Assembly: GCA_964493715.1 (NCBI GenBank)
Contig: CAZBPC010000002.1
Coordinates: 32,001-96,000 of the forward strand
From: an uncultured archaeon
GTDB taxonomy: Archaea; Asgardarchaeota; Lokiarchaeia; Sigyniarchaeales; SOKP01
Direction: 5' to 3'
Length of the DNA stretch: 64,000 nt
Below, piece by piece: positions 27,589 to 55,307 of this stretch. The notes beneath the pieces were generated by a model. The model was given only the letters and a program-made list of their open reading frames with translations, searched no databases and was not told the DNA's origin. The position numbers and the translations under genes were made by a program. Each line of letters starts with the position of its first letter. The first letter of the stretch is position 1.

Positions 27589-27695
27589 TGGCGGGCTATG
27601 AGGGAATTTCGCAATCATCCTATTCGGACGAATCTATCGAACCCCCGACCCCCCGGTTAAGAGCCGGATGCGCTACCTAGCTGCGCCAATAGCCC
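27589..27695 (-). tRNA. tRNA-Lys(CTT) with 30-nt non-canonical T-loop intron (27606-27635) and encoded CCA
   Basis: GGGCTAT/ATAGCCC acceptor stem, CT-CTT-AA anticodon loop; intron removal gives T-loop TTCGATT. Confidence 0.9.
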
Positions 27696-27733: not shown

Positions 27734-27834
27734 CGCAGACGGAGGGATTCGAACCCCCGAGCGCTCACGCGCACCGGTTTACTCGAATATGAAAACACTC
27801 AAGACCGGCGTCTTACCAACTAGGCTACGTCTGC
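27734..27834 (-). tRNA. tRNA-Ser(TGA) with 18-nt canonical 37/38 intron (27780-27797)
   Basis: GCAGACG/CGTCTGC acceptor stem, long variable arm, GGTTCGAATCC T arm, CTTG/CGAG central helix. Confidence 0.9.
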
Positions 27835-50638: not shown

Positions 50639-51214
50639 ATGTCTGAAAAAGCCAAAGAAATGGAAGAAGAATTTTCATTCAAATGTCCTATTTGTAATAG
50701 TGGAACGATCGAAATAACTAAAACAGTTTATGATATGACTGACGGAGACAAGATGCTAATTGTTAAATTTGAATGCAATAAATGCACGTTTATAAAAAAT
50801 GACGTGGTTCCATTAACAACTAGAATTGAACCCGGAATTATATCATTACAGGTGATGAATGAAAATGATCTCAAATCTAAAGTTTATCGTTCACCAGTTG
50901 GCATATTAGAGATTCCTGAATTAGAAGTGTCAGTGGAACCGGGTCCACGTGCAGACTTTTATTATACAAATATAGAAGGAATCTTGGAGCGATTTCAGAA
51001 AGCAGTGCAAATTTATCGAAATGATCTTGATGAAAATGAAGAAAAACAAGCAGAAATCGATGAAATATTAAATAATATTGATAAAGCTATGAAGGGTGAT
51101 TTTAATTTCACCTTAAAGATAACTGATACGGGTGGAGGTAGCTATATAATTCCTCAAGATGAATCAAAATATTCCTTTCAAAAAATAGATCTTCCTTTAA
51201 CCATGGATGAGTAA
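50639..51214 (+). CDS. ZPR1-type zinc finger protein
   Basis: CPIC..CNKC, LEIPEL, VEPGP, TNIEGILER and D.GG.SYI motifs. Confidence 0.9.
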   Translation: MSEKAKEMEEEFSFKCPICNSGTIEITKTVYDMTDGDKMLIVKFECNKCTFIKNDVVPLTTRIEPGIISLQVMNENDLKSKVYRSPVGILEIPELEVSVEPGPRADFYYTNIEGILERFQKAVQIYRNDLDENEEKQAEIDEILNNIDKAMKGDFNFTLKITDTGGGSYIIPQDESKYSFQKIDLPLTMDE

Positions 51215-51394: not shown

Positions 51395-52609
51395 ATTATA
51401 ACAGATAAAAGTGAATTTAATTGTTCAGATCCTAATCGATCCAAAAGACAAGAAATTAATCCCGGGTTATGTTATTTTGAATATCCTTTAAATAAATCTA
51501 GAAAGGATTTTCTTGACAAAGATGTTAATTTTTTAGAGATAATAGAATCAAAACATTATAATAGATGTTTAACTGACAATATTCAGACTTATCTAAAAAG
51601 TCTTGAGGGTGAAATCAGAATTTTATTCGAACCTTTCATAGAATTTAAGAATATGGGTGCACTTTTTGGGCTTCATAATAATTACATGCCAAATAATAGG
51701 ATGTATAAAAATTGTAAAAAAATTATAGCTAAAAGTACTTTAGATGAAATGCGAGTTAATTTCAAAAAAAATATTGAAAATTACACAAAGAAATTTCCAC
51801 ATTTGGTAGAGTTATTATTATTGTTTCATTCTGAAATTTTGAAATTTATTAATGAATATGAGATAATTCTTCAACCAAAACCTACTCCAGATTATCAAAT
51901 GTTCAATCACCATCCTAATCTTAAAAGAGATTATTTTGAAATAATTGATACATATGAAAAAGCGTACTGGCTTGGATTTCTATTTGCTGATGGATGGATA
52001 GCAATAGAACATAAAAAATCTGGAGATTATTATCGAATGGGGCTCCAATTATCATATAAAGACAAGGATGTGCTTCAGAGGTTTTGTAAAAGTATTGGAT
52101 TAAATCCTAAATATATAAAAAATCGTCTTGTTGGAAGTGATTTTAGCACAAAATTATATCATATAGGTGAAATTAGATGGGGAGATCAAAAAATAGCTCA
52201 AGATCTTGTAAAATTAGGGATAATATATGGATACAGTGAACAAAAAGGAAGGCGCGTTAAAACCCCTAGACTTCCAATACTACAGAACCGAAAACTGATG
52301 TTGGCATTTTTATCAGGTTTCTATGATGGTGATGGCACTCTTGGATTTGATAAGAAGACAGGCAAAATTCGTCCAAGAATTGCCTCTTCTGAAATAGACT
52401 TTTTACATCAAATAAAGCAATATTTCGGAATAAAGTATCAAATTTCTACAACAGAAATGGTTAAATTTAATATAAGAACAGAGAAAATGGTTAATATAAT
52501 AGGTAGTAGACTAGATGTTGATAAAGAAATATTTAAAGAAATGTTAAGTATATTTAAGAATAGTCTTGAAAGAAAGAGAGTTCCAATAGATTTCTTTAAT
52601 GAAAAATAG
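51395..52609 (+). CDS. Free-standing double-motif LAGLIDADG homing endonuclease-like protein (first ATG 51653; frame open from 51392)
   Basis: AYWLGFLFADGWI and AFLSGFYDGDGTL motifs; no intein or host gene around it. Confidence 0.82.
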   Translation: MITDKSEFNCSDPNRSKRQEINPGLCYFEYPLNKSRKDFLDKDVNFLEIIESKHYNRCLTDNIQTYLKSLEGEIRILFEPFIEFKNMGALFGLHNNYMPNNRMYKNCKKIIAKSTLDEMRVNFKKNIENYTKKFPHLVELLLLFHSEILKFINEYEIILQPKPTPDYQMFNHHPNLKRDYFEIIDTYEKAYWLGFLFADGWIAIEHKKSGDYYRMGLQLSYKDKDVLQRFCKSIGLNPKYIKNRLVGSDFSTKLYHIGEIRWGDQKIAQDLVKLGIIYGYSEQKGRRVKTPRLPILQNRKLMLAFLSGFYDGDGTLGFDKKTGKIRPRIASSEIDFLHQIKQYFGIKYQISTTEMVKFNIRTEKMVNIIGSRLDVDKEIFKEMLSIFKNSLERKRVPIDFFNEK

Positions 52610-52693
52610 CAAGTTTTTTTTATAGATTGCTTTCTTATTAAAATTGTAAGTATTTAGGAGAAAAATTTGAATAGAATTAAAAAGGTAGATTTA

Positions 52694-53880
52694 ATGGCTA
52701 AAAATGTAAAGCGAATAGGAATTTTAACGGGTGGTGGAGTTTCATTTAAGATACATCTTTTTGAACCACAGACTGTCCCGGATTAAATTCAGTGATTTAT
52801 GGGATAATGCTGAAAGCTTACGATGCGGATGTAGAATGCGTAGGAATTCTAAAAGGATGGAAAGGTTTTGTTGAAAATTTAACGATTCCCTTAAACATTG
52901 CAGAACATGACGATCTTCATACCAAGGGAGGGACAATATTGTATACAAGTCGTACTAATCCATTTAAAGGAGTTGAGGCTAAAGAGGAAAAAGCAAAGCA
53001 ATTAACTAATCAATTCAATGTGTTAGGTATAGATGCATTAATTGCTATCGGTGGAGATGATACTCTTGGAGTAGCAGATACCATGTATAAAATTGCTAAT
53101 GCAAATGTAGTAGGGGTTCCAAAAACGATAGATAATGACTTGAAGGGTACTCATTACACTTTTGGGTTCTGGAGCGCTGTACAATTAGCTTCTAATGCGA
53201 TGGATAATCTCACAACAACCGCACGTTCACACCAGCGTGTTTTTGTAGTTGAGATTATGGGAAGAGATGCTGGTTTTTTAACCATGTATAGTGGAATTTC
53301 AGCAGGAGCTGATATAATATTGGTTCCTGAAACCCCCTTTAGTTTAGAAAAAGATATTGTTGACGTACTCAAAAAAAGAGCTAATGCTGGGTATAAATAT
53401 CACATCATTGCCACATCTGAAGGAGCTCATCCTCATATCGATTCATTAAATCGAGATTTCAAGACAATTTCAAAGGAAACAATTGATAAATTACCTAAAG
53501 ATACATTTGGGAATCCTTTATTAGCAAAGTTAAACATTTCACAAATTATCGTTGATGAATTAAATTTAAGAGACGATCTAAAAGAAGTATTTCTCCAAAA
53601 TGACGTCGAATTCGAATGCAGGAGCGTAGTTTTGGGACATACAATGCGAGCTGGAACACCTAATTCGTTCGATAGAATTTTGGGATTGAGATTTGGATTA
53701 GCAGCCATGAATATGGTTTTAGAGTCTAAATTTGGGAACATGGTTTCGCTTCAAGGTAATAAAATTAAAACCATGCCGCTTTCGGAAGGGGTAAAAAAGA
53801 AATATATTACCTCAGATAGTGATAAAATGGAATTAAGAGATTTACTTGTAAAAGTGCGGTATCTATCGAAACAAAAATAG
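52694..53880 (+). CDS. pfkA: 6-phosphofructokinase (GGDD/PKTIDND, likely PPi-dependent) split by a 32-nt BHB intron (exon 1 52694-52739, exon 2 52772-53880)
   Basis: Spliced sequence reads MAKNVKRIGILTGGG-DCPGLNSVI; GGTIL.TSR, GGDDT, PKTIDND and EIMGR motifs; 384 aa after splicing. Confidence 0.93.
52740..52771 (+). other. Putative BHB (tRNA-type) intron in pfk mRNA, 32 nt
   Basis: Central helix GUGG/CCAC, bulges AGU and AGA, intron stem UUCA/UGAA, exon pairing CGGG/CCCG; frameshifts the gene unless removed. Confidence 0.88.
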
Positions 53881-54086: not shown

Positions 54087-55307
54087 TTAAAATATTAAAT
54101 CCTTAGGCCTAACATCAGGAGCTTTAAGAAGAATTAACCCTGATATAACCGTTATACAAGCTGCTACTGCAAAAGGAGTCCATCCTATTATTTCTATTAG
54201 TGATCCTCCTCTCATTATTGTAATACTTGATAAATCTACAATATATCCCATAAATATCGGACCAAACACAAAACCTATATCTCCAATCGTACGATACACG
54301 CCCATATAAATTTCAAGTTTATCCTGAGGCGCAATATCAGTCACATAAGCAGCTATTGGCCCTGAAAGCCCAATCAAAGCTCCATAAATAAACATAACAA
54401 AAGAAATGTAAATCAGATTTGAAGTAAAAGGAATCCAAAGGGTTACTGGTGCAGAAACGACAAGTGATAATAAAAGAGGAGTTCGTCGCCCAATTTTGTC
54501 TGAAATCAAGCCAATAGGTAACATGGTAATTGTAGTTGCAATAGCCGCTATGGTTAATAATATACCAATATCAAATTCATTTAAACCAAGGTTATTACCC
54601 GAAAAAAGTGGTACAAGAGTGTTTCGCACTCCCGTCCGTATAAAGAATAACGAAAAAATTGAGGGAAGAACTGGAATGAATGATGGATCTCTTAAACTGA
54701 ACCTTACTTGATGATAGAGATCTTGAATCTTAATAGGTTCCTTTTCATTCGAATTATTCACTCTTGGCAACGTAAGAGTGGGAACGATCCCTATAGCAGA
54801 TATAATAGCATAAGCAAAAAATGGAGCGTTTATACCATATAAATCTGCAATAAAACCACCAAAACTTGGCCCAAAAATGGATCCCAATAATAAAAAACCA
54901 GAATAAATGCTCATTAAAAAACCTCGTCTTTCTGGGCTAGCAACTAATGCAATAAAAATGGTTGCAATTGTTACATAAATTGCAGAACCAAAACCTTCAA
55001 TAAATCGAGCTAAAAGTAAAATCCAATAATATTGAGCTGATCCCGCCAAAATTGAGGATCCCGATATGAGTATTAATCCCAAAAGCATCAAATTCTTTTT
55101 ATTATATCTTTGAGATAAGAAACCAGCTGGTAAATCAATGAACATGCGAGCAATTCCAAATGCAGACACCACAAGTCCAATAAGCGTATAATTAACATTA
55201 AAAGATTCGGCATAAAAAGGTAAAATTGGAGCAATTATGCTTAATCCCAATAATACGAGAAAGGTGACAACCGCAAGGTTTAATGTGATTATAAGGTCTC
55301 TTTTTAT
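54087..55307 (-). CDS. MFS transporter; probable ATA start
   Basis: About 12 TM segments, ISDKIGRR motif; the first TM helix extends upstream of TTG 55250. Confidence 0.85.
   Translation of the reverse strand: MKRDLIITLNLAVVTFLVLLGLSIIAPILPFYAESFNVNYTLIGLVVSAFGIARMFIDLPAGFLSQRYNKKNLMLLGLILISGSSILAGSAQYYWILLLARFIEGFGSAIYVTIATIFIALVASPERRGFLMSIYSGFLLLGSIFGPSFGGFIADLYGINAPFFAYAIISAIGIVPTLTLPRVNNSNEKEPIKIQDLYHQVRFSLRDPSFIPVLPSIFSLFFIRTGVRNTLVPLFSGNNLGLNEFDIGILLTIAAIATTITMLPIGLISDKIGRRTPLLLSLVVSAPVTLWIPFTSNLIYISFVMFIYGALIGLSGPIAAYVTDIAPQDKLEIYMGVYRTIGDIGFVFGPIFMGYIVDLSSITIMRGGSLIEIIGWTPFAVAACITVISGLILLKAPDVRPKDLIF

Follow-up and report, generated by a model that had tools for sequence, protein, structure and literature searches.

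A probable bulge-helix-bulge mRNA intron in the phosphofructokinase gene of an Asgard archaeon, with similar inserts in other protein genes and a suggested link to free-standing LAGLIDADG endonucleases

How could an archaeon make a complete phosphofructokinase from a gene whose reading frame is broken in the middle of the GGGD motif? This question is raised by pfk in the stretch of DNA analysed here (the window), 64,000 nucleotides (nt) corresponding to C2:32001-96000 of its own genome, G000. The gene starts at ATG 52694, and its first 15 codons end in GGT GGT GGA. They are followed by a lone G at 52739, an insert, and then AC TGT CCC GGA. Unspliced, the open reading frame (ORF) runs from 52667 to 52786 and ends in TAA 52784-52786, and an ORF of 362 amino acids (aa) restarts at GTG 52792. 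The part downstream of the insert matches positions 11-276 of the 277 in profile PF00365 (E 1.4e-82), the first approximately 10 profile positions come from exon 1 once the insert is removed and only then, and no other PF00365 match was found in the genome. A sequence-only reading of the window had placed 32 extra nt at 52740-52771, before DCPGLNSV, and a stop of the unspliced frame at TAA 52784; both were present at exactly these coordinates, and removal of the 32 nt gives GGGDCPG. We consider it probable (about 0.85), judging from sequence, that the insert represents an mRNA intron of the bulge-helix-bulge (BHB) kind removed by EndA cleavage and RtcB ligation.

The minimum-free-energy (MFE) fold of the pfk intron contained the central helix H, both bulges, the UUCA/UGAA pairing of the intron hairpin h' (52741-52744 with 52762-52765) and the CGGG/CCCG pairing of the exon-exon helix h (CGGG at 52728-52731). 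In the proposed mechanism the transcript would fold with exon GUGG against intron CCAC, with two 3-nt bulges, the intron hairpin and the exon-exon helix. A two-subunit EndA would cut after the second base of either bulge, and RtcB would join G(52739) to A(52772) to complete the Asp codon of GGGDCPG. The joined frame would have 384 codons (15 + 1 split + 368), and the product would hold the junction peptide ...ILTGGGDCPGLNS... and the junction-spanning peptide ...GILTGGGDCPGLNSVIYGIMLK. The sequence-only reading had predicted cuts after the second nt of each bulge, and this holds in that G joined to AC gives GAC. It had also called the motif a textbook BHB: all of the named pairings and bulges were present, but the word was somewhat generous, as helix h is not stacked on the second bulge. 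With its interrupted outer helix, the pfk intron is a relaxed BHB motif. The features of the locus and the inserts in other genes are listed in Table 1.

Table 1. Features of the pfk locus (window coordinates) and inserts in other protein genes (contig or locus coordinates)
Feature	Position	Strand	Evidence or remark
LAGLIDADG gene, free-standing, 318 aa counted from ATG (405 aa in the open frame)	51653..52609	+	Pfam
pfk exon 1, 15 codons MAKNVKRIGILTGGG + G (base 1 of the Asp codon)	52694..52739	+	
Outer exon helix h, 5' strand CGGGUG	52728..52733	+	partner 52773-52781 over internal loop / one bulged U
Central helix H, 5' strand GUGG, exon 1	52734..52737	+	partner 52766-52769
Bulge 1, AGU	52738..52740	+	3 nt in MFE fold; predicted cut after 52739
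Putative BHB mini-intron, type A, 32 nt	52740..52771	+	sequence, fold, allele comparison
Intron hairpin h', UUCA/UGAA + inner AAGA/UCUU stem	52741..52765	+	MFE folds
Central helix H, 3' strand CCAC, inside intron	52766..52769	+	
Bulge 2, AGA	52770..52772	+	predicted cut after 52771
pfk exon 2, bases 2 and 3 (AC) of the Asp codon, CPGLNS... to stop	52772..53880	+	PF00365 match
Duplicated pfk 3' fragment, last ~35 codons	53985..54095	+	80% aa identity to residues 333-367
nadE insert, 30 nt	C39:8748-8777; L147	+	PF02540 3-143 / 144-242
leuS insert, 30 nt	C44:26027-26056; L148	+	PF09334 4-46 / 48-135
Thiolase C domain insert, 30 nt	C28:23007-23036; L150	+	PF22691 14-49 / 52-143
cdhD insert, 32 nt	C8:45566-45597; L154	+	PF03599 7-178 / 181-227
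EF-2-like GTPase insert, 30 nt, in-frame TAA	C76:5211-5240; L153	-	Pfam, exon 2 only
rtcB insert, 29 nt, outside window	G000:C2:12136-12164; L156:1474-1502	-	
argG insert in a relative, 30 nt	L121:2845-2874		downstream of LAGLIDADG gene
EF-2-like insert in a relative, 30 nt, TAA	L129:3062-3091		downstream of LAGLIDADG gene

To compare the junction among relatives, pfk loci were drawn from 41 related genomes and 80 further species genomes, and 82 distinct alleles were left after identical sequences, one N-masked locus and distant order-level loci had been dropped. In 65 of these alleles GGN GGN GGN GAY TGY was uninterrupted at precisely this junction, encoding the same GGGDC as the spliced junction GGA GAC TGT of the window. 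The other 17 carried an insert at the exact same junction (site 1), which was 31 nt long in 16 alleles and 32 nt long in the window's own. Two more carriers of site 1, L118 (31 nt) and L120 (32 nt, resembling the window intron), were found outside the 82. There were two intron sequence types at site 1, that of the window and a commoner 31-nt type, and both lengths break the pfk frame. A second insert site (site 2) was found in 15 of the 82 alleles (L016, L018, L023, L025-L027, L045, L052, L073, L075, L079, L083, L084, L095, L096), where 30 nt with in-frame stops interrupt the motif IGGD/DT, again between GGYGGAG and AC. Both introns were present together in nine alleles, and the window's own pfk has no insert at site 2. 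On a FastTree gene tree of pfk built without the intron columns, in which 16 of 79 inner branches were unresolved, no fewer than 14 state changes were required to account for the 17 carriers of site 1, and no fewer than 12 for the 15 carriers of site 2.

The structure was aligned over the 17 carriers of site 1 (16 distinct rows), which are related to each other and are the same sequences from which the structure was derived; over these rows, 97.3% of the BHB paired cells were paired, compared with 31.7-55.4% when the 3' partners were slid by 1-3 columns. Helix H was 100% paired in the 16 distinct sequences, with one U-A (window) to C-G (others) double change, and its 3'-strand columns showed only variation that keeps the pair (C or U facing G, A facing U). 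The first two pairs of h' were formed throughout (100%), 2 of the 16 sequences having double changes there, and the outer exon helix (helix 1) was 97.5% paired. Double-sided changes were found at three pairs, whereas 0.6 were expected from shuffles, and 4 of 500 shuffles reached that number. The intron bases of bulge 2 varied freely among the carriers (AG, AC, AU and UU). The homologous inserts therefore did not lack compensatory pairing, the finding that the sequence-only reading had named as its own refutation; the helices are kept by compensatory changes and by G-C/G-U changes. At site 2, where the geometry is compatible with a BHB, the outer helix had 5 invariant pairs, the bulges had 3 nt and the intron hairpin had 7-10 bp.

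The interrupted genes appear to be under the same purifying selection as the intronless ones. Exon 2 was free of internal stops in all 17 carriers; one stop was scored in each of L083 and L095, and it was taken to mark the end of a gene that is one codon shorter. The median pN/pS (proportions of nonsynonymous and synonymous differences) was 0.138 among carriers (136 pairs) and 0.145 among non-carriers (150 sampled pairs), with synonymous sites near saturation in these comparisons (pS approximately 0.71). In each of the 17 carriers, exon 1 encodes the peptide (V/I)GI(L/M)TGGG with the frame kept as far as the 5' splice site. In carriers of the 31-nt type, the intron and approximately 30 nt of the 5' exon showed identities of 0.79-0.97, compared with 0.77-0.78 for the same exon region of non-carriers, and further from the intron the identity was the same in carriers and non-carriers.

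At least six further protein genes of the window's own genome have 29-32-nt inserts of the same geometry (Table 1). Across five of the six junctions (nadE, leuS, thiolase C, cdhD and rtcB) the gap in the Pfam profile was 0-2 positions, whereas in the EF-2-like gene exon 1 is short and had no Pfam match. Candidates were picked by eye from filtered lists and were put to Pfam only if the flanks continued a conserved motif; for four of the eight own-genome candidates treated in this way (nadE, leuS, thiolase C and cdhD) the two halves of the profile match were contiguous. In all ten introns that were folded, h' extended from the second intron base to a point 6 nt short of the intron end. For six of the ten, the MFE structure had H, then a bulge of exactly 3 nt, then the hairpin, an arrangement that the pfk intron shares. 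In pfk, rtcB, cdhD and thiolase the insert splits the junction codon.

Two relatives provided further cases. The BHB of argG in L121 was complete, with an outer helix of 5 bp, H 4/4, AGA in both bulges and a hairpin of 9 bp; the insert follows GGTGGATTAG, its removal gives SGGLD/TS, and exon 2 matches PF00764 from position 12. In the EF-2-like gene of L129, the GTP_EFTU profile was matched at 3-37 and 49-187 on either side of the insert. These two inserts lie 70-190 nt past the start codons. The EF-2-like intron was present in 4 of 31 loci examined across the genus; L129, one of the 31, was first met through the LAGLIDADG search described below and was also a match of the EF-2-like search. By sequence, the pfk intron is assigned to a family-wide class of 29-32-nt mRNA introns located in conserved nucleotide-binding or active-site motifs. 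The sequence-only reading of the pfk intron was supported, and its picture was too narrow in that it missed the genome-wide class, the second pfk site of relatives and the LAGLIDADG link.

Some other loci of the same genome were noted. An alpha/beta hydrolase gene (C2:119235, Pfam match for exon 2 only) and a thiolase N domain (C145:329, Pfam match for exon 1 only) are probable further intron cases, and a korB-like gene (C53:2063) is a candidate from the scan list. Candidate C28:34411 was rejected, with a VWA domain on one side and no match on the other.

The host genome is a draft of 3.68 Mb in 160 contigs with an archaeal small-subunit rRNA. Two EndA paralogues were found (PF01974, 102 and 68 bits); the paralogue genes are located at C5:38084 and C58:18731. 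Asgard EndA is described in passages of an earlier paper as an (alpha-beta)2 enzyme with a loop insert linked to broad specificity (PMC5829648), and from their sequences the two paralogues are consistent with this type. An RtcB gene (PF01139) was also present, in two pieces around a 29-nt BHB insert. The profile was matched at 1-47 and 48-426 on the two sides, with the motif split as GVGY/DINCG, H 4/4 and a hairpin of 9 bp, and the junction codon UAC is formed only by joining non-adjacent bases. This rtcB is single copy and the only gene of its kind in the genome. If the introns are real, the one in the DINCG active-site motif would make a self-dependent loop in the splicing machinery, which suggests an autoregulatory or self-dependent circuit.

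ORFs joined across a BHB were also searched for in the whole genome (H 4/4, h' of at least 3, L 14-120), with controls in which the 3' partner was slid by 1-2 nt. The 30-nt class with an in-frame stop was the only class in excess, with 15 matches in the true geometry compared with 4, 9, 8 and 3 in the slid ones; at frame-shifting lengths there were approximately 40-55 matches per length in true and slid geometry alike. No further copies of the pfk introns were found in the genome with blastn-short, the best match being 19 nt in an intergenic hairpin between convergent genes (C55:21143). A BHB scan limited to the LAGLIDADG loci was too noisy and was dropped.

Several observations weigh against the intron reading of pfk. 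The whole-genome scan gave no excess of the true geometry (5842+5629 matches, compared with 5824+5554, 5821+5679, 5798+5665 and 5894+5606 for the slid controls), nor did 13 stricter filters give an excess of BHB-joined ORFs in the own genome. The broad scans show none because junctions of neighbouring genes swamp the signal, so that the intron census is incomplete and partly made by eye. The pfk fold was not more stable than shuffled sequence (z -0.66, with 49 of 200 shuffles at least as stable; z -0.28 when folding was repeated), and the z-scores of the ten introns, from -0.28 to -2.17, were not significantly beyond shuffles. Thermodynamics alone therefore leaves the pfk BHB at chance level, and it is the comparative data that raise it above chance. 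Helix h of pfk is interrupted, consisting of one G-C pair, an internal loop or bulged U, and 4-5 bp. The outermost H pair of L118 is G.A, and the derivation of the structure from the aligned carriers is a bias in its favour relative to the slid controls. The central helix of site 2 was weak, being 67.9% paired, with the outermost pair never formed and no double-sided change. The exon-1 frame had no ATG, GTG or TTG in 5 of 17 carriers (L045, L079, L083, L095, L110), compared with 1 of 65 non-carriers (L109); in these six, an ATA, ATT or ACG codon approximately 6 nt behind an AGGTGA motif suggests that pfk may use non-canonical start codons. As the sole rtcB is interrupted, making the ligase would depend on pre-existing ligase. 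Lastly, we infer cleavage and ligation, and with them every step at the RNA level, from DNA. All of the comparative tests that were run supported the spliced mRNA intron proposed in the sequence-only reading, with splicing itself inferred.

Other explanations of the insert have to be weighed against EndA/RtcB splicing. An assembly or sequencing artefact might be suspected in a draft of so many contigs, but its probability is next to negligible, as same-site inserts occur in 19 distinct alleles from many isolates and assemblies and diverge in a structured way. It is most improbable that pfk is a pseudogene, or that an N-terminally truncated inactive product is made from GTG 52792 and the insert is a neutral scar. 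The broken frame, the ORF that restarts downstream and the carriers without a canonical exon-1 start would fit this explanation. However, exon 2 is intact in 17 independently assembled carriers, and the pN/pS of 0.14 in carriers, which is at the intronless level although synonymous sites are saturated, argues that pfk is not a pseudogene. The exon-1 protein sequence is conserved in all carriers, the intron and approximately 25 nt of its 5' exon flank are more conserved than neighbouring synonymous sites, with identities of 0.79-0.97 compared with 0.78, pfk is the sole phosphofructokinase gene of the genome, and similar inserts are present in leuS and rtcB, which are expected to be essential.

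Translational bypass or another form of recoding could bridge the insert with no RNA splicing. Bypass is known in T4 gene 60 and in the byps of Magnusiomyces (yeast) mitochondria, which are likewise short, hairpin-bearing coding inserts missing from the protein; like byp elements, the inserts described here (29-32 nt) contain a hairpin and often have an in-frame stop just past the take-off point. We judge recoding to be very improbable indeed, since no matching take-off and landing codons were found at pfk, nadE, leuS, EF-2-like or rtcB, and since the split junction codons GAC (31-nt pfk type) and UAC (rtcB) require that non-adjacent bases be joined; that GAC of the 31-nt type, in which the intron ends in AC, AU or UU, forms only by joining G to AC argues against ribosomal bypass and excludes it for most alleles. 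Inserts of 29, 30, 31 and 32 nt would each need a recoding event of their own, and bypass does not require the conserved BHB geometry of a 4-bp helix and two 3-nt bulges at fixed distances from the ends. Programmed frameshifting was rejected, because each of the insert lengths (29, 31 and 32 nt, and 30 nt with stops) would call for a separate event. The insert could also be removed from the RNA by an unknown nuclease and ligase, or by RNA-guided processing, instead of by EndA and RtcB. The splicing enzymes were assigned by sequence, the central helix at site 2 is weak and the rtcB gene is itself interrupted, all of which would fit such a route. It is nevertheless very improbable, given that the geometry of an EndA substrate is exact in ten introns of unrelated sequence and that both EndA subunits are encoded in the genome.

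The second part of the question is how a spliced intron of this kind could have reached pfk. A free-standing LAGLIDADG gene ends 85 nt ahead of the pfk ATG. Its product matched PF14528 (E 2.3e-8; 34.6 bits against a cut-off of 22.5) and PF00961 (E 1.8e-5; 26 bits against a cut-off of 23.1), and two LAGLIDADG-like motifs are present in the translation of ORF 51653-52609. In relatives 118-170 nt separate a ZPR1-like gene from the pfk that follows it; in the window the ZPR1-like gene is at 50639-51214, and the spacer to pfk is approximately 1.5 kb with the LAGLIDADG ORF inserted. Enlarged ZPR1-pfk spacers, from 249 to more than 1500 nt, were found in nine site-1 carriers (ten with L084, in which the neighbourhood is rearranged), and beyond these carriers in L027 and L105 alone. 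A LAGLIDADG gene or remnant was located upstream of pfk in 4 of 17 site-1 carriers, compared with 1 of 65 non-carriers (a remnant in L105). In the four carriers these were the window's own gene, an intact gene in L066 (72% identity), a frameshifted gene in L084 and a C-terminal fragment in L023. Over all carriers, the endonuclease-gene states form a series of intact, frameshifted, remnant and absent. Some enlarged spacers are filled by other ORFs, in L045 (892-1293, 133 aa), L027 (788-1381, 197 aa) and L095 (222 aa). None of the three had a Pfam family at E <0.1, and those of L045 and L027, which carry pfk introns, might be other mobile or nuclease genes.

When the LAGLIDADG protein was searched for in the family, 78 of 133 genomes had a match. 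Those of highest identity, five in number (100, 80, 72, 56 and 56%), were all directly upstream of a pfk bearing the site-1 intron, and two site-1 carriers with an upstream LAGLIDADG gene were added by this search. In L121, a gene 52% identical to that of the window stands upstream of the intron-bearing argG, the one argG locus with both the intron and a LAGLIDADG gene. In L129, a more distant gene (35-38% identity) stands upstream of the EF-2-like GTPase. A LAGLIDADG gene or remnant was directly upstream in 2 of 4 carriers of the EF-2-like intron, compared with 0 of 27 non-carriers; the EF-2-like intron of the window's own genome is the same as that of L129 and has no LAGLIDADG neighbour. The related LAGLIDADG genes of pfk and argG (52% identity) go with similar insertion DNA, the intron lying between GGTGGTGGAG and AC in pfk and between GGTGGATTAG and AC in argG; site 2 of pfk and the argG site have GGTGGA...G/AC in common. 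The endonuclease gene is 130-480 nt upstream of the intron, and the introns are 45-190 nt into the host gene.

The association of endonuclease genes with introns at pfk, argG and EF-2-like suggests collaborative homing. Under such a mechanism the LAGLIDADG enzyme would cut the intronless motif (GGGD of pfk, SGGLD of argG or the switch-I region of EF-2-like), a 30-32-nt host-spliced intron would interrupt the cut site and protect its carrier, and the endonuclease gene would then decay while the intron stays or is lost precisely. Homing is suggested because of the strict co-occurrence, the decay series of the endonuclease genes, the patchy introns, their placement in conserved motifs near the 5' end and the similar insertion sequences. 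Against it, raised identity among carriers (0.85-0.97, compared with 0.77-0.78) was found only in the approximately 30 nt 5' of the intron, with no long co-conversion tract, and the BHB itself could explain this identity. The endonuclease gene is absent beside most pfk carriers, and introns deep in nadE, leuS and cdhD have no LAGLIDADG neighbour in their own genome. That the BHB mini-introns of this Asgard family are mobile by collaborative homing with free-standing LAGLIDADG endonucleases is put forward tentatively, at slightly under even odds.

Other observations at the locus and among the LAGLIDADG homologues were made. The duplicated 3' fragment of pfk (Table 1) includes 71 nt that are 94% identical to 53784-53854, and a stop of its own comes after them. 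It lies 100 nt past the pfk stop, at the place occupied in relatives by the pfk end, and adjoins the end of an MFS-type gene (54087-55250, minus strand). It is possibly a recombination scar, and would be in keeping with an incoming cassette having replaced most of the resident gene. In L125 (1062-3689), a LAGLIDADG gene has a 5' fragment of another gene upstream and a full copy of that gene downstream, both containing ...SRRTD...; this looks like another partial duplication beside a LAGLIDADG gene, and no intron was seen at this locus. In L122, L123 and other matches with frames of more than 900 aa, LAGLIDADG homologues (47-49% identity) lie within very long frames and are probably inteins, so that a relationship between intein endonuclease domains and the free-standing genes linked to pfk is possible. 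The tRNA genes beside distant LAGLIDADG genes (L132, L135 and L136) are 74-84 nt long and have no large intron, and the link was thus not extended to tRNAs. Two tRNA genes of the window, one of 101 nt (Rfam, 27734-27834, minus strand) and a tRNA-Lys of 86 nt (ARAGORN, 27609-27694, minus strand), exceed a plain tRNA in length and are likely to hold introns.

These introns resemble several known systems and differ from each of them. Archaeal rRNA BHB introns encode LAGLIDADG endonucleases such as I-DmoI; BHB splicing is combined there too with LAGLIDADG-driven mobility, but the ORF is within a long rRNA intron, whereas the present intron is ORF-less, with the endonuclease encoded outside the host gene. 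The BHB intron of cbf5 pre-mRNA is described, in passages of its report, from Crenarchaeota (Desulfurococcales and Sulfolobales) with a heteromeric EndA, and has been gained and lost among relatives (PMC2738675). According to passages of a later paper, cbf5 was the only earlier mRNA case, and the 5'-untranslated-region intron of Haloferax HVO_1309 was added in 2020 (PMC7714728). The present case is like cbf5 in having a BHB intron within a protein ORF, gain and loss among relatives and a host with heteromeric EndA. It differs in the Asgard phylum, in other genes, in at least seven genes per genome instead of one, in the uniform length of 29-32 nt, in the nucleotide-binding and active-site motifs and in the LAGLIDADG link.

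Asgard tRNA genes are very intron-rich, as passages of two sources state (PMC11291895; preprint 10.64898/2026.10.13.758758). Their introns are found in the same clade, have the BHB motif and, in those passages, show repeated lineage-specific gains and a patchy distribution; the interrupted genes there are tRNA genes, and here they are protein-coding. In the passages found of the 2026 preprint (10.64898/2026.10.13.758758), the arrival route of the introns 'remains open', and mRNA, cbf5, homing and LAGLIDADG are unmentioned. Collaborative homing was defined for psbA of cyanophages (a passage of PMC6083498, citing Zeng et al. 2009). The F-CphI/psbA pair likewise has an optional free-standing endonuclease gene beside an ORF-less intron at a conserved site with patchy distribution. 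However, a self-splicing group I intron and an Endo VII-like enzyme are involved there, in contrast to a 31-32-nt BHB intron that would be spliced by the host and a LAGLIDADG protein here. A full-text search of the available literature, supplements aside, gave no earlier account of BHB introns in protein-coding genes of Asgard archaea, or of a connection with LAGLIDADG genes.

Taken together, the pfk finding is real and its interpretation as an mRNA intron is supported, and what sets it apart is the lineage, the number and kind of genes that are interrupted, rtcB among them, and the connection to an endonuclease. The BHB introns proposed here are located in genes of central metabolism (pfk, nadE, cdhD and thiolase), of translation (leuS and the EF-2 paralogue) and in the gene of an RNA ligase. 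Gene callers would report such genes as truncated or split, which would distort metabolic reconstructions and completeness estimates of Asgard genomes. Host-spliced introns, if splicing occurs as proposed, can reside in the mRNAs of the archaeal lineage nearest to eukaryotes. The LAGLIDADG link in three host genes makes the question of how BHB introns arrive a testable one, and collaborative homing, if true, would provide a concrete route by which the archaea most closely related to eukaryotes could gain BHB introns.

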